Below are positions 3,213 to 41,040 of a stretch of DNA of 46,054 nucleotides, piece by piece (the stretch's first letter is position 1; each line of letters starts with the position of its first letter). The notes beneath the pieces are model-generated. The model saw only the letters and a program-made list of their open reading frames with translations. It ran no database searches and was not told the origin of the DNA. Origin of the DNA: Escherichia phage vB_EcoS_ACG-M12; the sequence record NC_019404.1; one strand, written 5' to 3'. The position numbers and the translations under genes were made by a program.

Positions 3213-3486
3213 ATTGGATTGTTAAAAAAGAGCTTGCATCACTGAGTGGAAGTATATAATATTAATCACGTAGACAGGCGAGGCCACTAAGTGGCAACGG
3301 CGCACGGAGCGCAACTACTAAGTCCGTTGCTCATTAAGTAGCGTATGCGGCACACTTCCCAGTATGGGCTTTATCCCATTAGGGACTTGTAAGACCTAGA
3401 GCAAATAGGCAATCAAATCGGTCGTAACAGGCGACGCTGGATCCGTAACCAGCAATCTTCATCTAGCAAGTCTAGCTAAAGATTAT

Positions 3487-3561
3487 GCTCTGTTAGCTTA
3501 ATGGAAAAAGCCGCAGCCTTCTAAGCTGTTGATGGTGGTTCGACTCCACCACGGGGCGCCA
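3487..3561 (+). tRNA. tRNA-Arg(UCU)-like, 75 nt with encoded CCA
   Basis: Hand-folded cloverleaf: acceptor GCTCTGT/ACGGGGC (two G-U pairs), D-stem GCTT/AAGC with GG in the loop, anticodon stem GCAGC/GCTGT with loop CTTCTAA, T-arm GGTGG-TTCGACT-CCACC, discriminator G, CCA. Confidence 0.6.
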
Positions 3562-3809: not shown

Positions 3810-3834
3810 AGCCCTCGCTTGAGGGCTTTTTTTC
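3810..3834 (+). terminator. rho-independent terminator
   Basis: Hairpin AGCCCTC-gctt-GAGGGCT followed by a T7 run. Confidence 0.7.
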
Positions 3835-4400: not shown

Positions 4401-5969
4401 ATGTCTTTAGTATGGGAAGAGATGACCATTCAGGAAAAGATGGCTGTCAAGGCGATATCAGAGCATAGTTTTGAGGGCTTTTTAAGGTGTTGGTTTTCAA
4501 TAACACAAGGCGAGCGATACATCCCTAACTGGCATCACAAGTATCTTTGCCGAATTATCGACGAGATTATTGCCGGGGAGCGCAAGGACACTATCATCAA
4601 CATAGCGCCCGGTAGCGGTAAGACAGAGATCGCTTCAATCCATTTCCCAGCCTACTCAATGGTTAAGCTGAAGAAGGTGCGAAACCTCAATATATCTTTT
4701 GCCGACTCACTGGTAAAGCGCAACTCCAAGCGCGTGCGTGACCTTATCAAGTCACCAGAATTTCAGTCGCTTTGGCCTTGCAAGTTTGGCACGTGCAAGG
4801 ACGATGAGCTTCAGGTTCTTGATGAGAGCGGGAAGGTTAGGTTTGAGTCAATATCAAAGGCGGCGGGAGGTCAGATTACTGGCGCTCGTGGTGGCTATAT
4901 AACCGAAACATATAGCGGGGCCGTCTTATTAGATGATTTTGACAAGCCCGCAGATATGCTATCAGCAGTCTACCGAGCAAATAACCATGTAATGCTAAAA
5001 AACACAATTCGCTCCCGTCGTGCGAGTTCTGTAAAGGGAAAGGCAACGCCAATCATTTCGATACAGCAGCGATTGCACGTTAATGACTCAACCTGGTTCA
5101 TGATGGAAGGTGGGATGGGTATCGAATTCGATTTGATTAAGATACCAGCGTTGGTAACTGAGGATTACCTAGACACACTACCTGAATGGATTAAAGAACA
5201 GTTTGAAGAGGATGTCCTTAGTAGTGAATACATAGAGCGCGATGGAGTAAGGTATTACAGCTACTTCCCTAAAAAGGAGTCAGTCAATGACTTGGTTGCG
5301 ATGTGGGATAGTGACCCTTACACCTTCCTTAGTCAGTATCAACAAGAACCAGTAGCTCTAGGTGGCAACCTTATTAACGTAGATTGGTTCCAGCGCCTTA
5401 GCGACACGTTCAGACCTCCCGCTAAGTACGATTATAGATTTATAACTTGCGATACAGCTATGACTACAAAAAGTTATAGTGACTTCTCTGTCCTTCAATT
5501 GTGGGGTTATAAAGATGCTAAGATTTACCTTATTGACCAGCGCAGGGGGAAATGGGAAGCGCCCGAGTTAGAGGCAGAGTTAATCGATTTCGAGAAGAAA
5601 TCAAGGGCAACCAGTCAATCGGATGGTATCCTCCGAAAGATTATCATCGAGAAGAAAGCATCTGGAATCGGACTCATTCAATCAGCAAGTCGAGTCATGA
5701 GAACGCCAGTGGAACCTTATGTTCCTGATAATGACAAGTTAACAAGGGTGATGAGTGCGCTGCCACAGATTAAGGCTGGTAACGTAGTTCTTCCTGAGTC
5801 TGCGCCGTGGTTAAGCGGATTGCTTACTGAGATTGCGGCATTTACCGCTGACGACAGCCACAATCACGACGACCAAATTGATACCATGACAATGGCTATC
5901 AACCTGGTTCTGAACATTGCGGATGACCCTAAGGCGAGACTAATGCGCATAGCGGGAATAATAAAATAG
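4401..5969 (+). CDS. terminase large subunit (522 aa)
   Basis: Walker A IAPGSGKTEIAS in the N-terminal ATPase; size and position; acidic C-terminal nuclease-like region. Confidence 0.85.
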   Translation: MSLVWEEMTIQEKMAVKAISEHSFEGFLRCWFSITQGERYIPNWHHKYLCRIIDEIIAGERKDTIINIAPGSGKTEIASIHFPAYSMVKLKKVRNLNISFADSLVKRNSKRVRDLIKSPEFQSLWPCKFGTCKDDELQVLDESGKVRFESISKAAGGQITGARGGYITETYSGAVLLDDFDKPADMLSAVYRANNHVMLKNTIRSRRASSVKGKATPIISIQQRLHVNDSTWFMMEGGMGIEFDLIKIPALVTEDYLDTLPEWIKEQFEEDVLSSEYIERDGVRYYSYFPKKESVNDLVAMWDSDPYTFLSQYQQEPVALGGNLINVDWFQRLSDTFRPPAKYDYRFITCDTAMTTKSYSDFSVLQLWGYKDAKIYLIDQRRGKWEAPELEAELIDFEKKSRATSQSDGILRKIIIEKKASGIGLIQSASRVMRTPVEPYVPDNDKLTRVMSALPQIKAGNVVLPESAPWLSGLLTEIAAFTADDSHNHDDQIDTMTMAINLVLNIADDPKARLMRIAGIIK

Positions 5970-6038
5970 CACTAATTGCTAAACATTAATGCCATGGATG
6001 GTGTATAGTTACCTCACACAAGCGAAGGGAGATAAAAG
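5965..6038 (+). promoter_or_regulatory. conserved intergenic cassette (box overlaps the terL stop TAG; TATAGTTAC at 6004-6012)
   Basis: AATAGCACTAATTGCTAAA ... GTGTATAGTTACC ... AGCGAAGGGAG. Confidence 0.55.
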
Positions 6039-6347
6039 ATGAAAGCAGTATTTAAAGGTTACAAGAAAAATGGTTATCTTAATTTTACTTTTGGTAAAAT
6101 TTATGAGCTATCAACGGCAACTGAGGCTTTCGGATTCTTAAAAGTGACTGATGACGATGGATTTAATGGAGTAATTATCCCAGGTGACACCTATGATTTC
6201 GAGGTGCTGATTCCGGATGAATTTATCAATAAAAAAAGCAATTTAAATATTACATTAATGGCGAAGTGGTTACTAAGACAAAGTTCGACGATACGCTATT
6301 GTGTGTTAAGGACTTTGAAAGAGATGGCATTGATACATCATCAATAA
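6039..6347 (+). CDS. hypothetical moron-like protein (102 aa) between terL and portal
   Basis: Own cassette upstream and terminator downstream; N-terminus FKGYKKNGY resembles gene 18912. Confidence 0.5.
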   Translation: MKAVFKGYKKNGYLNFTFGKIYELSTATEAFGFLKVTDDDGFNGVIIPGDTYDFEVLIPDEFINKKSNLNITLMAKWLLRQSSTIRYCVLRTLKEMALIHHQ

Positions 6348-6391
6348 AGTTCGAGGTAAAATTCGAGTAACCACAAAAGCTATGATAAACT

Positions 6392-6413
6392 AGCCCCTAC
6401 ATGGGGCTTTTTT
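6392..6413 (+). terminator. rho-independent terminator
   Basis: AGCCCC-tacat-GGGGCT followed by a T6 run. Confidence 0.65.
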
Positions 6414-6427
6414 ATTGGAGAAATGCA

Positions 6428-12434: not shown

Positions 12435-13091
12435 ATGGCCCATCTCAGCAATGGCACGCAGGTCTTCGTAGAAGGCTCTCGCGGAGCTGCAATTGACGTA
12501 ACAGCAATTTCTAACGCAGTTACACCTGTTTTAACTGTATCTGACGCATCCGGCGTGGCTGAGGGTGATTACCTGCTTTTCACCTCCTCAGCCTCTGCGC
12601 TTCTGGCTGACAAGCAAGTTCGCGTAACCGCAGTCTCTGGCACCTCGGTAACTGTTGAGGGTATTGATACCTCAAGCACTACCAAATTCCCTGCTGGTTT
12701 AACTGGTGAGGTTGTCAAGATTACTTCATGGTTCGAAGTTCCGTGCGTTCAGGACGTATCTACTGACGGCGGCGAGCAGCAGTTCGTTAACTTCCAGTGT
12801 CTTTCTGATGACCGTGAACAGCAGATTCCGACTTATAAATCTGCCGTAACAAACACCTTTACCTTTGCTCACGAGTACACCAACCCGGTTTATCCGGTTC
12901 TGCGTAACTACGATGAGTCTGGCCAGGTTGTTGCGATTCGCCTGTTCGTACCTCGCGCTCAGGAAATGCGCTTGCAGTCCGGCACTATCGCTTTCAACGA
13001 CACCCCTACCATTGGTGTTAACGAAATCGAAACGGTATCTATCGCGGTATCCATTCGTGGTCGCTTGTCCTCCGTGGCAGCTGAAGTTTAA
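12435..13091 (+). CDS. major tail protein (218 aa)
   Basis: Position directly upstream of the chaperone/tape-measure genes; followed by a strong terminator. Confidence 0.6.
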   Translation: MAHLSNGTQVFVEGSRGAAIDVTAISNAVTPVLTVSDASGVAEGDYLLFTSSASALLADKQVRVTAVSGTSVTVEGIDTSSTTKFPAGLTGEVVKITSWFEVPCVQDVSTDGGEQQFVNFQCLSDDREQQIPTYKSAVTNTFTFAHEYTNPVYPVLRNYDESGQVVAIRLFVPRAQEMRLQSGTIAFNDTPTIGVNEIETVSIAVSIRGRLSSVAAEV

Positions 13092-13098
13092 AACACAA

Positions 13099-13121
13099 AC
13101 CCTCTTCGGAGGGTTTTTTTA
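13099..13121 (+). terminator. rho-independent terminator
   Basis: ACCCTC-ttcg-GAGGGT plus T7. Confidence 0.7.
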
Positions 13122-13124
13122 TTG

Positions 13125-13200
13125 ATAGCACTTTTTGTTAAAGACTAAAAATCAAAATGCTGTATAGTTCAATCATCGAAACGAAATGAGAAATTAAGAA
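13125..13200 (+). promoter_or_regulatory. conserved intergenic cassette (GATAGCACTTTTTGTTAAA ... TGTATAGTT ... CATCGAAACGAAATGAG)
   Basis: Precedes gene 13201. Confidence 0.5.
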
Positions 13201-13467
13201 ATGAATAGTAAGTTAGAAGTATTATCCGCACTTCGCGGCCCTATTTGTGTAGCTGCGCTGGTTGCCTTTTATGCAGCAGTTCAGATTATCAACCCAACAA
13301 GAGCGGAAACAGCAAACTCTGACGCGGCAAAATACAATTCGGTTTTCTCTGAGCACAAGGCAATCTGCGAGAAGGCTTCTGGTAGCAAGATTGATCAGGT
13401 TCTGAAGTATGGCAAGGAAATCTGCGTAGATATCGCGCACGACATTGCAAAAGAAAGCACTAAGTAA
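13201..13467 (+). CDS. hypothetical protein with N-terminal hydrophobic segment (88 aa), moron-like, inside the tail module
   Basis: Own cassette; hydrophobic stretch ICVAALVAFYAAVQII near the N-terminus. Confidence 0.45.
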   Translation: MNSKLEVLSALRGPICVAALVAFYAAVQIINPTRAETANSDAAKYNSVFSEHKAICEKASGSKIDQVLKYGKEICVDIAHDIAKESTK

Positions 13468-13503
13468 TACAATAATCAAACACTAAAAAAGAGGATTAAC
13501 GAG

Positions 13504-13818
13504 ATGGCAAAGTTCAAACTTTCACTAGCGGCACTACCTGACTTTAAACTGCCTGTAAAATTCAAGCTAGCTAACGACCAGGATGTAGAGGTTATGTTCA
13601 CAGTTAAGCACAAGAAAACTTCTGAACTGCAGGAGTTGCTTAACAAGGAAAACCTGAGCACTAAAGAGCTTATTATGGCAATTGCCTCTGATTGGGATTT
13701 AGAGGAAGAGTACAATGAGGAAAACGTTAATGAGTTCTCCGATCTGTTCCCGGCTTCAACCGTTGCTTTGACTACTGCTTACATGCAGGCACTGGCGGGT
13801 CAGCGAGTAAAAAACTAA
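13504..13818 (+). CDS. tail assembly chaperone (G-like, 104 aa)
   Basis: Immediately upstream of the tape measure; ends with the slippery heptamer A_AAA_AAC then TAA. Confidence 0.6.
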   Translation: MAKFKLSLAALPDFKLPVKFKLANDQDVEVMFTVKHKKTSELQELLNKENLSTKELIMAIASDWDLEEEYNEENVNEFSDLFPASTVALTTAYMQALAGQRVKN

Positions 13819-14138
13819 AGAGGGCGGTGTATCTACAGTACCAGTCAGAGCCAACTGATGCCGAACTGGAGGCTATTGGGATGCGCCGCTCTGATTACGA
13901 AGATGAAGAGCCTGAAGTTTTACACTTCGACGAAAACATGATGAAAGCATGGGACATTTACTGTTCAATGGCTACGCAGTGGAGAGTCGGAGCTAACGGA
14001 GCTACAGGTCTAGATTACAACGTGCTAAATTTCCTCTTTAGAGTGTATAATGTCTCAGAAGAAGAATTGGTGCTCAGCGATTTACGCATCCTTGAAGCTA
14101 AGGCTCTTGAGATGATGGATAACCTGAGAAAAAAATAA
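13504..14138 (+). CDS. predicted frameshifted chaperone fusion (GT-like) via -1 slip at 13809-13815
   Basis: ORF 13827..14138 is in the -1 frame relative to 13504..13818 and has no ATG of its own (track start is GTG); classic arrangement before the tape measure. Confidence 0.5.
13809..13815 (+). other. candidate -1 programmed frameshift site A_AAA_AAC
   Basis: X_XXY_YYZ heptamer in the zero frame (GTA AAA AAC TAA); the -1 frame stays open into ORF 13827..14138. Confidence 0.55.
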
Positions 14139-14158
14139 CCCGCTTCGGCGGGTTTTCT
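14138..14158 (+). terminator. terminator-like hairpin (attenuator?)
   Basis: ACCCGC-ttcg-GCGGGT followed by TTTTCT; the tape measure gene starts 16 nt later. Confidence 0.4.
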
Positions 14159-14173
14159 ATTATGGAGGCTTAG

Positions 14174-17152
14174 ATGGCAACAAATGAATTAGCCGGAATC
14201 ACACTAGCCGTAGACGTCTCGCAGGTAGACAGGGGAACGCAATCCCTACAAAAGTTCAGACAGGCCAACCAACAGGCTGCATCTGGGATTAGTGAGTTCG
14301 TCAATGCTGAGCAGGTTGCTAAAAACCAGGCTAGAGATACCGCTCGCGCACTTGCTGAGCAACAGGCATCTTTAGCTAAATTGCAAACAGCTATTGATCC
14401 AACCGCTGCAAAGTTCCGCAAGCTGCAAGAGGCTGCTGTAGGTCTGGATAAGGCATTCGCGGCTGGAGTAGTTCCTGATGAGGAGTTTTTCCGATTAGGT
14501 GAAGCCCTTGAAACGCAGAACGCAAAACTTGCTCGTTCACGTGCGGCACTAACTGAGGAGGGTAGAGCGGCAGCTCAGGCCGCAAAAGATAAAGCAAAGG
14601 CAAAGGCTGAAGCTGATAGGTTCATTGCGTCACTTGAGCGCCAGGCTCAAGCGGCAACATTGACGCGCGAAGAGTATCTAAAGTTACAGGCTGCTCAGCT
14701 TGGCGTAAGTTCTCAGGCGGCACCTATTATTGACAGAATCGCCGATGCATCACAGAAGGCAAACACCCAGCTAATTGCTCAGAGTAAGGCTTTTCAGAAA
14801 TCAGGATTAAGCGCGGGTCAATACAAGAATGCAATTTCTCAGCTGCCAGCGCAGATTACTGATATTGGCACGTCGCTTGCTGGCGGCATTCCGATTTGGC
14901 TTATTGCAATTCAGCAAGGTGGGCAGATCAAGGATGCATTTGGCGGTATTGGTAACACATTTAGATTCGCGCTTGCAGCCTTAAACCCATTCAATGTAGC
15001 TGTTGGTGTTTTGGGTGGGGCGCTTGTAGCTCTTGGTGTTGGTGCGGCTCAGGCTGAAAGTGAATTCAGAGCATTAAACTCCGCAATTGCTTTCTCCAAC
15101 AACTCTACAATCGCATCAATTTCGCAGGTTAGAGAGTTGGTTAGCTCTGTTTCTGATGCAACAGGTGCCACCAGAGGACTTGTGACTAGCATCGCAACAA
15201 GCCTTATTGAGCAAGGGAACCTTACGCTGACGCAGATTGACAAGATTACTAAATCGACCGCAAGATGGGCGCAGTTGACAGGTAAGGATGCGAAGGAGAT
15301 TACTGGTTACTATAACCAGATTGCAAGCGACCCAATCCAGGGTTTAGTTGATTTGGATAAGCGCTTTAACTTCCTCACACAGGGGCAGTTGACGACAATC
15401 GAAAACCTGAGAAAGACAAAGGGAGAAGTTGAGGCCGTTACTGCTGCGATTGATATTTTCAGCAAGTCTCAGGAAGCCAACCTTAACGACATAGCTGCGC
15501 AGTTAACTCCGCTTGAGCTAGCCTGGAATGATTTCAGAAAGTACATCTCTGATATATGGGATGCAATTAGCCGTAGAACGGTTGGGGCTCTAAACCTGTT
15601 TGTTGACGTAATCGCCGGAACAATTGAGCAGATCAGGGTCTTCATTAATCAGGGTGATGCGCTGATTGGTGAATTCGTAATTAGCGCAACTCAGGCATTG
15701 CAGAACATTCCTGGTCTTGATGGCGTTGGTGATGATGTTATCAAGGGGCAGCAGAAGATTATCGATGCCGCCAAGAAGCAAAACCTTGAGCTAGAGAAGT
15801 CTATCAAGGAGCGCGATGCCAGAATCAGAGAGGGAGAGCTTGGTTACGTTACTCGCAGAGAAAATCAGAATACCAATGAGCAGTCAGGTACTGATGAGGA
15901 ATTTGCAAAAAGGAAGAAGGCGCTTCAGGATGAGCTTGATGCGATCAAGAAGAACAGGAAAGAAGAAAATAGTAGGGTTAAGGAGCAAAGAGATTTAACA
16001 ATTGGTTATGAATATGGCGTTCTGGCGCTTCAGGCTCAACTCAAGGCGCTTCAGGAAAACAGGGATATTGGCGCAGTAATAAGCAATGAGCGCAAGCAGT
16101 ATCTTCAGGAGGAGGCCAAATTCAGGATTCTTGAGCAGAGACAACTTGATGGCTCAATTACCAAAGAGCAAGCAAGACTTCTCATTGAAAAGGATAAAGT
16201 TCTTGAGTTAGCCAGACAGAAGGCTGAGCTAGGTGATCAGATTGTTTTGCAGGAGCGAGCTAATAAGTTAGCTGAAGATAACCGCAAGAAGATTCTTCAG
16301 ATTAACAATGAGGCAAGTAACATTGATTTGGGTGCTGGTTTATCATCTCGCGAGCAGCAGAGAGCCAAAGAGATTCAGGCTCTTCAATCCAATCAGGTTA
16401 ATGCTGGTGGTTCTGTTGATGATGTTGATTTTCAGCAATTACTGGAAGCAAGAAAGGAATACTACAAGCAGGAGGATAATCTTAGGTCAGACTGGCAATC
16501 CGGTGTAACATCCACTCTCGCCGACTTGACAGAGAAGTACACTGACTACAACCAGATTGCTAAGGACTTAACTGTTGCGGCATTCGATGGAATTACAGAA
16601 CAGATTACAAACCTTGTAACCACTGGTGAGACTAATTTCAGAGATTTCACAGCAAGCATCCTCAAAATGATTGCGAAGATTGCAACTCAGTTACTTTTGG
16701 TTAAGGCCATCGAATCAACATTGACTAGTTTTGGTGGTGGGGGAGGTAACGTGTTTGGCTCACTTGCATCTGCCATAGGTTTTGCTGGTGGCGGCTATAC
16801 TGGTGATGGTGGGAAGTATCAGCCAGCAGGAACGGTGCACCGTGGTGAGTTTGTATTCACAAAAGAAGCGACAAGCAGAATTGGCGTGAAAAACCTTTAC
16901 GCGCTGATGAAGGGTTATGCGAATGGCGGCGCTGTTGGTGGTCCTTCCGGTTATGCGAATGGTGGTTTGGTTTCTGGTGGAACTGATGTTAATGTTAGCG
17001 GCATCACTGTTAACGTAAATTCCGGTTTGGGTGGCGACTCAGAGCAAGCAAAAGCATTGCAGAGTGGCGTCAAGGCTATCGTAGCGGAAGAAATTGCTCA
17101 GTCTTTCCAGCAGGGTGGCAGGGCGTATGCCTATTTGAGAGGTTTTAACTAA
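14174..17152 (+). CDS. tail tape measure protein (992 aa)
   Basis: Largest tail gene after the chaperones; long Ala/Gln/Glu-rich coiled coil; Gly-rich C-terminal region. Confidence 0.8.
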   Translation: MATNELAGITLAVDVSQVDRGTQSLQKFRQANQQAASGISEFVNAEQVAKNQARDTARALAEQQASLAKLQTAIDPTAAKFRKLQEAAVGLDKAFAAGVVPDEEFFRLGEALETQNAKLARSRAALTEEGRAAAQAAKDKAKAKAEADRFIASLERQAQAATLTREEYLKLQAAQLGVSSQAAPIIDRIADASQKANTQLIAQSKAFQKSGLSAGQYKNAISQLPAQITDIGTSLAGGIPIWLIAIQQGGQIKDAFGGIGNTFRFALAALNPFNVAVGVLGGALVALGVGAAQAESEFRALNSAIAFSNNSTIASISQVRELVSSVSDATGATRGLVTSIATSLIEQGNLTLTQIDKITKSTARWAQLTGKDAKEITGYYNQIASDPIQGLVDLDKRFNFLTQGQLTTIENLRKTKGEVEAVTAAIDIFSKSQEANLNDIAAQLTPLELAWNDFRKYISDIWDAISRRTVGALNLFVDVIAGTIEQIRVFINQGDALIGEFVISATQALQNIPGLDGVGDDVIKGQQKIIDAAKKQNLELEKSIKERDARIREGELGYVTRRENQNTNEQSGTDEEFAKRKKALQDELDAIKKNRKEENSRVKEQRDLTIGYEYGVLALQAQLKALQENRDIGAVISNERKQYLQEEAKFRILEQRQLDGSITKEQARLLIEKDKVLELARQKAELGDQIVLQERANKLAEDNRKKILQINNEASNIDLGAGLSSREQQRAKEIQALQSNQVNAGGSVDDVDFQQLLEARKEYYKQEDNLRSDWQSGVTSTLADLTEKYTDYNQIAKDLTVAAFDGITEQITNLVTTGETNFRDFTASILKMIAKIATQLLLVKAIESTLTSFGGGGGNVFGSLASAIGFAGGGYTGDGGKYQPAGTVHRGEFVFTKEATSRIGVKNLYALMKGYANGGAVGGPSGYANGGLVSGGTDVNVSGITVNVNSGLGGDSEQAKALQSGVKAIVAEEIAQSFQQGGRAYAYLRGFN

Positions 17153-17223
17153 TAGCACTAAATGGTAAAGCCAAAAGGATTTGGCTTGCTATAATCAACT
17201 CATTAAAAGCATGAGGTGATAAA
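17151..17223 (+). promoter_or_regulatory. conserved intergenic cassette (AATAGCACTAAATGGTAAA ... TTGGCTTGCTATAATC)
   Basis: Box directly after the tape-measure stop; TGCTATAAT extended -10-like box at 17187-17195. Confidence 0.5.
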
Positions 17224-17721
17224 ATGAACTGGAATGATATTTTTGAGTATAGAGATGGGGTTCTTTATTGGAAGATTTCAACAAGCAACAAATCAAGAAA
17301 AAAGATTGGTGATGTTGCGGGTAATCAAATGAATGATGGATACATAATGGTTCAGGCATTTGGCAAAAGAATGCTTGCTCATAGGGTTGTTTGGGAAATG
17401 CATAATGGCAGAATAACTAATGGCATGCATATAGACCATTTAAACCACATAAGGAATGACAACAGGATAGAAAACCTAAGACTGGTGTCAAGAACAGAAA
17501 ACAACAGGAATAAATCACTGTCAAAAGTAAACAAAACAGGTGTTTCAGGAGTTAGATTAAAAGATGGGCTATTTGAGGTTTCGATAGGTGGAGAAAAAAA
17601 CAAGACTTACATAGGAAGGTTCTACACACTGGATGAGGCTAGAGCAGCAAGGAAATGCGCAGAATTTGAACTTAATTACCACAATAATCATGGGGATTGC
17701 AATGGCGATAGACACATTTAA
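17224..17721 (+). CDS. HNH homing endonuclease with AP2-like DNA-binding domain (165 aa)
   Basis: HRVVWEMHNG...IDHLNHIRNDNRIENLRL HNH motif; paralogue of gene 39194; inserted between the tape measure and the M-like gene. Confidence 0.75.
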   Translation: MNWNDIFEYRDGVLYWKISTSNKSRKKIGDVAGNQMNDGYIMVQAFGKRMLAHRVVWEMHNGRITNGMHIDHLNHIRNDNRIENLRLVSRTENNRNKSLSKVNKTGVSGVRLKDGLFEVSIGGEKNKTYIGRFYTLDEARAARKCAEFELNYHNNHGDCNGDRHI

Positions 17722-18052
17722 TTACTGCACTCAAATCCAAAATGGAGGCGGCTCGTTCTCTAACACGAACAACGTCAGAATTGTTAGCTTCGGCAATGGT
17801 TATCGGCAAATTGGAATCGGGGGGTATAACACAAACGTTAGAACATACTCAATGACCTATACAAACAAGAACTGGCGTGATGTGATGGACTTTTGCTTCA
17901 ACCACATCATTAACCCGTTCTTCTGGACTACTCCGCAGGGTGATACTTCAATGTTTGTGATTCAACAGGATAGTATTAGCGTGACACCAGTCAGCAAGGA
18001 AGTTCAAACTGTAAACATGCAATTCGTAGAAGTATTTAGCTCAATGCGTTAA
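17702..18052 (+). CDS. minor tail protein, lambda M-like (116 aa)
   Basis: VRIVSFGNGYRQ...TYSMTY...FFWTTPQG resembles the lambda M family as recalled from memory; start at the ATG overlapping the HNH 3' end. Confidence 0.6.
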   Translation: MAIDTFNYCTQIQNGGGSFSNTNNVRIVSFGNGYRQIGIGGYNTNVRTYSMTYTNKNWRDVMDFCFNHIINPFFWTTPQGDTSMFVIQQDSISVTPVSKEVQTVNMQFVEVFSSMR

Positions 18053-18845: not shown

Positions 18846-18911
18846 ATAGCACGAATTGCTAAAGACGATTTAAAAAGATGGGGTATAGTTACCCAATCGA
18901 AACGAGAGGAG
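18845..18911 (+). promoter_or_regulatory. conserved intergenic cassette (AATAGCACGAATTGCTAAA ... GGTATAGTTACC ... CAATCGAAACGAGAGGAG)
   Basis: Box at 18845-18863, TATAGTTAC at 18884-18892. Confidence 0.55.
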
Positions 18912-19274
18912 ATGAAAAAAATGTTCCAAATTAAATTTAACGGATACAAAAAAGACAAAGAAGAGTGCGCTGGTTTGTTTTTTGTTGGCCACAATTACCC
19001 CTGCAGTGTTGTTGACTCAAACAGATACTATCAGACGCAGGATGAGAATGGCAATATTGTAAAGTTTAAAAGTATTTTTCGTGATGCTTGTTACGACTTT
19101 TCAAGAATTGATACTCAGAGCAAGGTATTAGACGAGCATGATAACAAGATGAAATATCGAATGAATGGTGTTGATGTCACTAAGTCATTCTTTGATGATA
19201 AGCTACTGGAAGTTGAGATGCTTAAATCAAGAGATGTTTCAGTATTTATAGATTTTGAGGTTTATTTTGAATAA
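18912..19274 (+). CDS. hypothetical moron-like protein (120 aa) between the L-like and K-like genes
   Basis: Own cassette and terminator-like hairpin; N-terminus FNGYKKDKEE resembles gene 6039. Confidence 0.5.
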   Translation: MKKMFQIKFNGYKKDKEECAGLFFVGHNYPCSVVDSNRYYQTQDENGNIVKFKSIFRDACYDFSRIDTQSKVLDEHDNKMKYRMNGVDVTKSFFDDKLLEVEMLKSRDVSVFIDFEVYFE

Positions 19275-19332
19275 ACAAAATTAGTGTTAAACTAGGTCAA
19301 TCGAAAGGTTGGCCTTTTTTATTGGAGATAAA

Positions 19333-25356: not shown

Positions 25357-25436
25357 GTTCCTTAGAATGTGTGTTTCGTTTTGATGGAGTAATCATATCT
25401 TAACTGTTAGGTTTGTCTTTAGCTATTCGTGCTATT
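25357..25436 (-). promoter_or_regulatory. conserved intergenic cassette, minus orientation
   Basis: Reverse complement reads AATAGCACGAATAGCTAAA ... leader CCATCAAAACGAAAC before the lipoprotein gene. Confidence 0.45.
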
Positions 25437-32096: not shown

Positions 32097-32115
32097 AATA
32101 GCACGAATTGCTAAA
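32097..32115. promoter_or_regulatory. isolated dyad box AATAGCACGAATTGCTAAA at the 5' end of the tail fibre gene, without a downstream -10 or leader
   Basis: Only copy not followed by a TATAGTTAC box and leader; lies between a TACAAT-like element and the SD of the minus-strand fibre gene. Confidence 0.4.
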
Positions 32116-32140
32116 GTGGATTGTAGCATCTTTAGGGCAT

Positions 32141-32162
32141 AAAAAAACCTCCCGAAGGAGGT
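32141..32162 (-). terminator. rho-independent terminator for the minus-strand primase transcript
   Basis: Reverse complement reads ACCTCC-ttcg-GGAGGT plus T7. Confidence 0.65.
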
Positions 32163-35746: not shown

Positions 35747-36166
35747 ATGAAGATTACAGATAAAGAAGATTACATTGAGTTTTACCCGGGTGCTGTAAAA
35801 TCATGTCCAAAGGAGGATGACGAACAAATCTTTTGCTCTGATTGGGTTAAGTACCATTATCCGCAGATTGTTTACTGGCACACGATTAATGAAAATAAGA
35901 AGACCATAGGGCAAGCAAGAAAAGACCAGGCGAAAGGACTCCTTAAGGGCGTATCAGACTGCTTATTCCTGATACCTGAATCAATGCGAGGCAAATACCC
36001 TTTTGGAGCCATAGAGCTAAAGAGGGCAGGAAAAACTCAAGCAAGCCCTGTCAGCGATGAACAAAAGGTTTTCTTAAAAAGCGTAAGGGAATCAGGCGGT
36101 TTCTCTGCTGTAGCCTACGGTCGCGAAGGTTTTCTTGCAGCATTCAAAGAAATGATTTCAAAATAG
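35747..36166 (+). CDS. VRR-NUC domain nuclease (139 aa)
   Basis: D...E-x-K arrangement (SDCLF...GAIELKRAGKTQ...Q) characteristic of VRR-NUC as recalled; coupled to the helicase. Confidence 0.5.
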   Translation: MKITDKEDYIEFYPGAVKSCPKEDDEQIFCSDWVKYHYPQIVYWHTINENKKTIGQARKDQAKGLLKGVSDCLFLIPESMRGKYPFGAIELKRAGKTQASPVSDEQKVFLKSVRESGGFSAVAYGREGFLAAFKEMISK

Positions 36167-39122: not shown

Positions 39123-39193
39123 TAGCACATTTTGTTAAAACAGTAGCCGCGAAAGCGGCTATTATTGTTTTATACAAACGGGAGGGGATTTAA
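39121..39193 (+). promoter_or_regulatory. conserved intergenic cassette (AATAGCACATTTTGTTAAA variant) containing hairpin TAGCCGC-gaaa-GCGGCTA
   Basis: Precedes the HNH gene at 39194. Confidence 0.45.
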
Positions 39194-39688
39194 ATGGATT
39201 GGAATGATTTTCTTGAGTATAGAGATGGCAGGCTTTACTGGACTGACCCGCATTCAACAAAACTCAAGCCAGGTGATGAGGCTGGCAGCAGGCACCATAT
39301 GGGTTATTGGTACATTCGCAGATATGACAAAACAATGTCAAGGCACAGAATCGTATGGGAGATGCACAACGGACCAATACCAGAAGGCATGGAGATAGAT
39401 CATATAAATCACGCCCCTGGTGATGACAGGATTGAAAACCTAAGAATGGTCACAAGAAGGCAAAACAATCAAAACAAGAAATTAGATGGAAGAAATACAA
39501 GCGGACACGTCGGGGTCAGCTTGAACAAGAAGACAAACAAATGGAGAGCAATGATAGGCATAAAGGGAGAGGACGGAAAGAGGAAAACTCTATACGTTTA
39601 CTATGGTGATTCTTTCGATGACGCAGTGTCAGCAAGAAAGAGAGCTGAGGTTGAGTACTCATTTCACGAAAATCACGGAAGAAGCTAG
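39194..39688 (+). CDS. HNH homing endonuclease with AP2-like domain (164 aa), paralogue of gene 17224
   Basis: MDWNDFLEYRDGRLYW ... HRIVWEMHNG ... IDHINH ... RIENLR; clear paralogy with the 17224 protein. Confidence 0.75.
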   Translation: MDWNDFLEYRDGRLYWTDPHSTKLKPGDEAGSRHHMGYWYIRRYDKTMSRHRIVWEMHNGPIPEGMEIDHINHAPGDDRIENLRMVTRRQNNQNKKLDGRNTSGHVGVSLNKKTNKWRAMIGIKGEDGKRKTLYVYYGDSFDDAVSARKRAEVEYSFHENHGRS

Positions 39689-40863: not shown

Positions 40864-41040
40864 ATGACTAAAATGATTTATTGCACCAAGAACAACTCCA
40901 AGACGCTTCCATTTACAGTTAACCAGCCGTACAATGCAGAGTATCAGGGTGACGGATATTACAAGATTTACGGAGACGATATGACGTGGATTTTAGCACC
41001 GATTGATGGTTCGCTTGTTGAATTTATTATCGCAGAATAG
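40864..41040 (+). CDS. hypothetical small protein (58 aa) with YQGDGYY motif
   Basis: In-frame ATG after ACGAGGAAACACAAG; paralogous motif with gene 37013. Confidence 0.4.
   Translation: MTKMIYCTKNNSKTLPFTVNQPYNAEYQGDGYYKIYGDDMTWILAPIDGSLVEFIIAE

Follow-up and report, generated by a model that had tools for sequence, protein, structure and literature searches.

Paralogous moron-like genes in the structural module of Escherichia phage vB_EcoS_ACG-M12, one of them frameshifted at a poly-A linker

Are the small open reading frames (ORFs) lodged between the head and tail genes of a T1-like phage parts of its virion, or passengers with a transcriptional life of their own? The question is raised by the structural module of Escherichia phage vB_EcoS_ACG-M12 (NC_019404.1), whose 46,054 nt we analysed as a single window. 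By the taxonomy of its close relatives, the phage belongs to Guelphvirus (Drexlerviridae, Braunvirinae) and is a virulent T1/Rtp-like siphovirus. According to PHROG scans (head and neck genes are left out here), its gene order runs from terS (3877) and terL (4401-5969) to portal (6428), the major tail protein (12435-13091), a tail chaperone (13504) followed by the tape measure gene, an HNH endonuclease (17224-17721) followed by M-like and L-like minor tail proteins, a K-like tail gene (19309/19333), and the I-like (20072) and J-like (20686) genes; the published ACG-M12 coordinates (orf26 at 12435-13091, tail fibre from 29255) agree with the window. Three small ORFs on the plus strand lie within this order, and all three exist as proposed: gene 1 (6039..6347) between terL and portal, gene 3 (13201..13467) between the major tail protein and tail chaperone genes, and gene 2 (18912..19274) directly ahead of the K-like gene. 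The 102-aa product of gene 1 is identical to ACG-M12_0016 (AFH19897.1 / YP_006987834.1). Morons, as defined by Juhala and Hendrix, are extra genes that carry their own promoter and terminator and are inserted between genes adjacent in related phages. The original prediction regarded all three ORFs as such insertions, each driven by its own upstream cassette, with genes 1 and 2 closed by a terminator-like hairpin and related by a short N-terminal segment, F(K/N)GYKK(N/D).

The shared segment is indeed present in both proteins, and as annotated it is also nearly all that they have in common, since BLASTP returned only a 7-residue match (E 0.21). The sequence comparison, however, reveals a frameshift within ORF 6039..6347, at seven consecutive A's (A7, 6231..6237), and the annotated coordinates describe the frameshifted product. 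Frame 0 encodes an SH3-like N-terminal domain and the start of a Lys-rich linker (6039..6237, residues 1-66), after which the annotated protein runs on from ...DEFINKK into SNLNITLMAKWLLRQ..., a sequence without resemblance to anything; 37 codons at the end of the ORF (6238..6347) are thus out of frame. The -1 frame (6236..6370, KQFKYYINGEVVTKTKFDDTLLCVKDFERDGIDTSSIKFEVKFE*, with its TAA at 6368-6370) encodes a conserved C-terminal beta-beta-alpha-beta domain, KQFKYYING...SSIKFEVKFE*, which matches both the C-terminus of gene 2 (...KYRMNGVDVTKSFFDDKLLEVEMLKSRDVSVFIDFEVYFE*) and the intact 110-aa ortholog of phage EC3a. An eighth A would restore a single ORF of 110 codons, and EC3a has precisely these eight A's and one ORF; SU57, G8, and PCEc3 likewise have one ORF, with an interrupted run (AAAGAAAAG) in place of A8; A7 and a split gene, seen as two-piece tblastn matches, are found in the window, ECH1, SCS31, and phiEB49. 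Likewise, a six-frame search of the window with a family profile retrieved exactly three fragments, namely gene 2, an N-terminal one at 6036-6344, and a C-terminal one at 6233-6367 (E 7.7e-24); this profile includes the window's own sequences, whereas the PHROG match given below is independent of them. Furthermore, the 133 nt that follow the run differ from EC3a at 13 positions, which read as 9 synonymous and 2 non-synonymous changes in the -1 frame against 1 and 11 in the annotated frame, a pattern that identifies the -1 frame as the reading frame kept by selection. As copy 1 is one A short in its A7 tract, the annotated 102-aa product corresponds to the SH3 domain plus 37 nonsense residues. 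The annotation error affects at least four public records (ACG-M12, ECH1, SCS31, and phiEB49), in which the frameshifted gene was entered as a "virion structural protein" of 102 or 68 aa.

Once the frame is corrected, the proposed paralogy holds over the full length: gene 1 now matches gene 2 with a BLASTP E value of 8e-6 and 32 % identity in the family alignment, and both proteins match phrog_14592 end to end (gene 1, E 1.5e-38, profile positions 2-116 of 116; gene 2, E 4.1e-41, positions 1-116). On these alignments, genes 1 and 2 are true paralogs, i.e., diverged copies of one small accessory family. The family is small: a set of 1.84 billion proteins yielded 43 clusters of it at the 50 % identity level, nearly all members being stand-alone proteins of 100-140 aa, and about 7 of the 43 representatives at that identity are truncated. 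Gene 2 is the intact copy, and its start is probably the ATG at 18921 (117 aa) rather than that at 18912: the gene begins ATGAAAAAAATG, and its GGAG Shine-Dalgarno sequence directly abuts the first ATG, while it lies 9 nt before the second. This start region also contains an A7 run.

Is the missing base of gene 1 a property of the phage or of its sequencing? Given that the ACG-M12 genome was determined by 454 pyrosequencing, as stated in the ACG-M12 paper, the real phage might carry A8 at 6231 and an intact gene 1 of 110 codons, with a 454 undercall carried over into related records. The perfectly open -1 frame downstream would fit such an origin, as would EC3a, which is the only other genome with an uninterrupted run and has A8 and an intact gene. 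In addition, ECH1 and SCS31 (ON081052.1) have the same length as the window, 46,054 bp, which suggests that their assemblies or termini were modelled on the ACG-M12 reference and renders them weaker independent witnesses. Against an artefact, however, A7 occurs in all four records of this allele, which originate from four laboratories and countries and span 2011-2022, and ECH1 displays 17 indel openings elsewhere, so that indels were called in that assembly. Moreover, the linker is broken in four other lineages, each represented by two to three metagenome contigs. We hence regard an artefact as a possibility to be taken seriously though doubtful, and the A7 of the window as probably real. ECH1 (MN164484.2) is 97.7 % identical to the window, and its 17 indel openings, all within 13114-17887, cancel out. 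An exact-pattern scan for the A-run allele retrieved only phiEB49 and EC3a from IMG/VR and no match from the JGI metagenomes.

The four further broken lineages are informative in their own right. Three of them are interrupted at an A run (A7, A5, and A5, respectively), reading GAT-A7-CC (L019/L020), GAT-A5-CC (L021-L023), and GTA-A5-TCC (L026/L027), where A6 would be needed for a single ORF, and the fourth (AATAATTAAAACC, L024/L025) requires one more base. In each of the four, the other frame still reads through the C-terminal domain, and invariant residues have been replaced (N to I, E to K) in the L021 lineage alone, so that four of the five broken lineages, the window included, are free of decay at these positions, which is unexpected for old pseudogenes. 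These alleles mark the Lys-rich linker, encoded by A runs, as a probable mutational hot spot, the gene having been broken there repeatedly.

The same pattern could be read as a functional switch, in which the A tract yields an SH3-only and a full-length product by -1 ribosomal or transcriptional slippage, or toggles reversibly between A7 and A8 as an ON/OFF device. Indeed, the break coincides precisely with the boundary between the domains, four of the five broken lineages have retained an intact C-terminal domain, and the same A7 allele is shared by four phages whose flanks differ by 2-12 %, the 133 nt downstream of it being identical in three of these genomes and differing by one base in phiEB49. 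A runs preceding a lysine codon are also known to support low-level -1 slippage in E. coli. Frame 0 nevertheless reads T AAA AAA AGC instead of an X XXY YYZ heptamer, no stable hairpin is found 5-9 nt downstream (the only good helix is ~43 nt away, with an overall z-score of -2.1), and seven A's are short for efficient transcriptional slippage. Nor do close relatives conserve the arrangement, being either in frame with A8 or endowed with an interrupted run, and the broken lineages differ in both direction and site of the shift, with +1 at A7, -1 at A5, and one case outside a homopolymer. As neither a heptamer, nor a stimulatory structure, nor conservation in relatives was found at A7, programmed frameshifting is unlikely at this site, and slippage or reversible switching taken together seems to us quite improbable.

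With respect to their genomic position, genes 1 and 2 behave as the original prediction supposed. The terL-portal flanks are matched by 140 phage records; terL is directly followed by portal in MM01, BEK6, OzMSK, AHP42, AKS96, Sf12, and the vB_EcoS-12xxx/2xxx records, IME542 holds an HNH gene in this slot, and other records hold phrog_14592 members of varying divergence. Gene 2 is rare at its slot, as only 8 of the 783 phage records that match the flanking tail genes possess it, and its subtype was detected in 13 of 50,697 phage records. EC3a has just 10 nt and no insert between its L and K genes, and elsewhere the L-K slot is occupied by an HNH endonuclease (Rtp, DTL, JulesPiccard) or a Rha-like gene (IME253). 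Both slots are consequently empty or otherwise filled in close relatives, and the universal synteny that would mark core structural genes was not observed. The base composition of both genes is likewise unlike that of their neighbours: with a GC content of 0.334 and 0.336, genes 6039 and 18912 lie ~3 sd below the mean of the structural module (0.454, sd 0.035, determined in 350-nt windows of the module) and, together with the HNH gene (0.365), form its lowest stretches. In being sporadic and poor in GC, these two genes therefore conform to the expected moron-like insertions. In some phages, HNH genes occupy the very slots that hold phrog_14592 paralogs in others. The window itself contains two free-standing HNH genes with their own cassettes, one at 17153-17721 (phrog_99, E 3.5e-57, N-terminus MNWND...), flanked by the tape measure gene and the M-like tail gene, and a second at 39123-39688 (N-terminus MDWND...), named after the ECH1 annotation at the same coordinates. 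Two variable slots of the Drexlerviridae are thereby defined, since terL-portal and L-K hold phrog_14592, HNH endonucleases, or nothing by turns.

The predicted upstream cassette is present at all three genes, but it proved to be general rather than their own. Ahead of gene 1, its upstream element (TAGCACTAATTGCTAAA) spans 5967..5983, the first three bases being the terL stop codon, and is followed by a -10-like hexamer, TATAGT (6004..6009), and a GGGAG ribosome-binding site (6027-6031). The cassette of gene 2 (18847..18889) consists of the element at 18847-18863 and TATAGT at 18884-18889, and that of gene 13201 (13126..13168) directly follows the terminator of the major tail protein gene (13097-13116). 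All three can be written as TAGCACNNNTTGNTAAA...TATAGT, starting at 5967, 18847, and 13126, with the common layout TAGCAC-N3-TTG-N-TAAA, ~20 nt, TATAGT, a CATCGAAACGA-like leader, and a Shine-Dalgarno sequence. Across the genome the consensus is TAGCAC-N3-TTGNTAAA, ~20 nt, TATAGT/TATAAT, and the conserved leader CATCGAAACGA, and the window holds 22 copies on both strands against 1.8 expected, for instance, at 1307, 2117, 5967, 13126, 18847, 27585, 36164, and 40780, and on the minus strand at 25434, 25751, 44830, and 46012. These precede small genes of the early region, tRNA-Arg, and Erf-like annealing-protein, helicase, HNH, and lysis-region genes (the Erf-like, helicase, HNH, and lysis names follow the ECH1 annotation). 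From its consensus and distribution, the cassette is the phage's putative general promoter, not one specific to genes 1 and 2. The upstream element forms a near-palindrome, TAGCA-N5-TGCTA. Separated by 22 nt from the -10 hexamer and centred near -41, it is no textbook -35 box and bears a closer resemblance to a UP-type or activator site. Many of the spacers have GGATGG just before the -10 hexamer. Within 3464-3561, a degenerate copy with two mismatches is located directly upstream of the single tRNA-Arg (TCT) at 3487-3561.

The terminators of the two inserts turned out to be of different origin. Downstream of gene 1, an intrinsic-terminator-like, G+C-rich hairpin with a T-run lies at 6392..6414 (hairpin 6392-6408), and a counterpart follows gene 2 at 19294..19321 (hairpin 19294-19315), both on the plus strand. 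However, MM01, which lacks gene 1, keeps the same hairpin between terL and portal (...AAATAGCCGTGATAAACTAG-hairpin-TTTTTATTGGAGAAATGCAATG); since the hairpin and the portal ribosome-binding site persist without the gene, both belong to the backbone, and the terL-portal insert consists of promoter and gene only. The promoter, gene, hairpin, and portal-like ribosome-binding site (TTATTGGAGA) of the L-K insert, instead, are all missing from EC3a, and because only 10 nt separate L and K there, the gene 2 hairpin is part of the insert. The notion of a gene-owned terminator thus applies to gene 2 and fails for gene 1. The junction TAAACTAG-hairpin-CTTTTTTATTGGAGA is common to both sites, which suggests that the L-K unit may have been copied from a unit of the terL-portal type. 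This terminator/RBS junction is the only stretch shared by the flanks of the two paralogs; specific flanks left by a recent duplication were considered and discarded, as the cassette ahead of gene 2 resembles the copy at 36164 more closely than it does the gene 1 cassette. Further terminator-like hairpins lie between structural genes at 3810, 9398, 10456, 10793, 13097, 14137, and 20652, and given how frequent cassettes and hairpins are genome-wide, possession of both is by itself weak evidence for an autonomous insertion.

Could the cassette, rather than the gene, be what selection maintains? On the plus strand of the structural module (3877-24111), cassettes occur only at 5967, 13126, 17153, and 18847, where they precede, in this order, a family gene, the small membrane protein gene 13201, the HNH gene, and a family gene. 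As each of these four also lies upstream of a block of core genes, a selected cassette might serve to re-prime transcription of portal and of K-I-J, with the ORF as a functionless leader, and the cassette at 32099 is followed by a terminator and no ORF. Yet the family is conserved at full length, with invariant core residues, over ~43 clusters and several phage types, and its substitutions are mostly synonymous. Moreover, a terminator stands between each small gene and the core gene that follows, and relatives without the insert are viable with no promoter at these positions. We therefore consider a mere promoter module very unlikely. The cassette is kept ahead of the orthologous gene in relatives and travels with it. 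The copy at 32099-32150, directly succeeded by a terminator-like hairpin (cctcccgaaggagg), could give rise to a short non-coding transcript or represent a remnant.

Genes 1 and 2 thus resemble lambdoid morons in lying between neighbours adjacent in relatives, in their promoter-like cassette and low GC, and, for the L-K insert, in bringing a terminator along. In contrast to lambdoid morons, they reside in a virulent phage, without prophage expression or benefit to a lysogen, their promoter is the phage's own standard cassette, and the terL-portal terminator belongs to the backbone. The arrangement is also reminiscent of the promoter-early stem-loops (PeSLs) of T4-type phages, mobile regulatory cassettes that shuffle small genes, as here too a promoter sequence present in 22 copies and a similar terminator/RBS junction flank small optional genes. 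By analogy, the repeated cassette and junction could act as recombination points for gene shuffling, although cassette sequence, phage family, and gene content are different, and the likeness is drawn from sequence repeats rather than recombination junctions.

What kind of protein the family encodes was approached by structure prediction, as the original prediction had suggested. From a 32-sequence alignment, AlphaFold2 produced a model with a pLDDT of 86, in which residues 1-57 form a five-stranded barrel, 59-65 a disordered linker, and 69-109 a beta-beta-alpha-beta unit that, when predicted alone, reaches a pLDDT of 96.6. The model thus predicts an SH3-like barrel at the N-terminus, joined by a Lys-rich linker to a very conserved C-terminal domain of 45 residues ending in ...SSIKFEVKFE. 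In the family alignment, the invariant residues are hydrophobic core positions together with N74 and E106, and no catalytic-looking motif was found among them. Scans of all three window proteins against Pfam, NCBIfam, and PADLOC gave no match, hence none that would speak for the candidate roles in host interaction, exclusion, or anti-defence put forward in the original prediction. A sequence and profile search of the PDB returned only repeat-protein noise (designed "Cake" propellers), and fold searches gave weak and generic matches, with no informative structural neighbour for the C-terminal domain.

The closest, albeit marginal, relative of the N-terminal domain is DUF7244, a stand-alone SH3 protein adjoining the Drexlerviridae lysis cassette that was described in 2026 for KanT1/T1 and belongs to the "shell" genome of this family, sometimes adjoining HNH genes (PMC13164509). 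The window encodes a member at 40864..41040 (PF23896, E 2e-29), just upstream of the holin gene. Both are small SH3-type barrels with the pattern FTVG/N..Y...G(Y/F).K(V/I).DD...P.D...F; the link is, however, marginal (hhalign E 0.002, probability 14 %), as 3 of 32 family members match DUF7244 below the Pfam threshold (best E 0.013) and neither the gene 1 nor the gene 2 protein does so at the gathering threshold. Furthermore, phrog_14592 differs from DUF7244 by its additional conserved C-terminal domain and its other genome positions. A second small barrel is Gp54 of phage Bas11 (PDB 9AXB), which is dispensable to the phage and is recognised by the defence system CapRelSJ46 (PMC11578894). In contrast to phrog_14592, Gp54 is a single-domain barrel of six strands, and sequence similarity between them is not detectable. 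A Gp54-like CapRel trigger is not supported by sequence or barrel type, and the fold score was no better than that obtained with generic eukaryotic SH3 domains.

The current label of the family points in another direction, as RefSeq and PHROGs designate phrog_14592 as "virion structural protein". If so, the two genes might encode minor head or tail decoration or assembly proteins, in keeping with the location of both copies in the structural module and with single records naming a "putative minor outer capsid protein" and a "putative tail fiber protein". However, the records and literature examined name no experiment behind this label, and in the original GenBank entries the product is given as "hypothetical protein" or "gp57". 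The published virion proteomes of T1-like phages that were examined list seven proteins, none of them of phrog_14592, but those phages have no such gene at the slot and are hence uninformative. More telling is that the genes are missing from most relatives, which build the same virion, and that broken alleles are common. Homologs in other phage types adjoin ligase, helicase, and polymerase genes, for instance, in the Vequintavirinae phage A7_1, where the homolog is found among small genes adjoining the DNA ligase gene, and on an 84-kb contig, where it is placed after DnaB and PolA; as these homologs lie among early or replication genes, the label is unsupported. A virion component accordingly appears improbable to us, and independence of context, sporadic presence, and frequent broken alleles together argue for a dispensable non-structural protein. 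Our best guess, taken from fold, context, and evolutionary behaviour, is that genes 6039 and 18912 encode an SH3-type binding protein of the cytoplasm that the phage can do without and that is served by a putative promoter of its own.

Taken as a whole, we favour, with reasonable though limited confidence, a scenario of paralogous moron-like accessory genes, the first of them frameshifted, that specify a dispensable binding protein outside the virion. In the structural sense, both would be morons, as they are low in GC, sporadic, and self-promoted. Each copy would have arrived with the phage's standard cassette for the host RNA polymerase, a promoter role assigned from the consensus only, and would have inserted between genes of the late structural operon, in a slot that acts as a hot spot for optional cargo. 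Expression would then depend on the gene's own promoter and not on the control of the late operon, and the protein may serve as a cytoplasmic binding or adaptor protein acting on a host or phage partner, whereas its poly-A linker would expose the gene to repeated breakage, as presumably happened to copy 1, which is one A short in the A7 tract and retains an intact C-terminal domain in the -1 frame. Beyond the original prediction, the analysis adds the frameshift, and with it the wrong coordinates and product of gene 1, the full-length paralogy, a first terminator that belongs to the backbone, a cassette spread over the whole genome, the conservation of gene 13201, and the finding that the "virion structural" label is unsupported.

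Being small, well folded, and built of two domains, with alleles that are repeatedly broken, phrog_14592 is a reasonable candidate when T1-like phages are screened for triggers or inhibitors of defence. In a more speculative and, in our view, unlikely extension, the linker might be a contingency or recoding site, at which populations toggle between or co-produce SH3-only and two-domain forms. Selection would then stem from hosts in which the full-length protein is disadvantageous, for example because a defence system senses it as CapRel senses Gp54, and the breaks at one spot in five lineages, the mostly intact C-terminal domain, and the persistence of A7 across four countries would be explained.

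The third gene has a different history. Gene 13201 (13201..13467, plus strand) encodes a protein with one hydrophobic segment, belongs to phrog_22925, and stands outside the paralog family. Although a cassette precedes it, it has no terminator of its own, its GC content of 0.446 is not deviant, and homologs exist in 80 phage records, of which those listed are 52-58 % identical over residues 18-88. Where the position was checked, in IME253, the homolog and the L-K region are as far apart as they are in the window. The notion of a third cassette-driven, moron-like insertion was thus abandoned, and gene 13201 is, from these comparisons, best seen as a conserved small membrane-anchored protein of the phage group rather than a sporadic insertion. 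Next to it, the ORFs 13504..13818 and 13827..14138 are in -1-related frames, as are the tail chaperones G/GT of lambda. PHROGs named "tail length tape measure protein" match the first of these ORFs, and in the ECH1 annotation the two are entered as tape measure protein.
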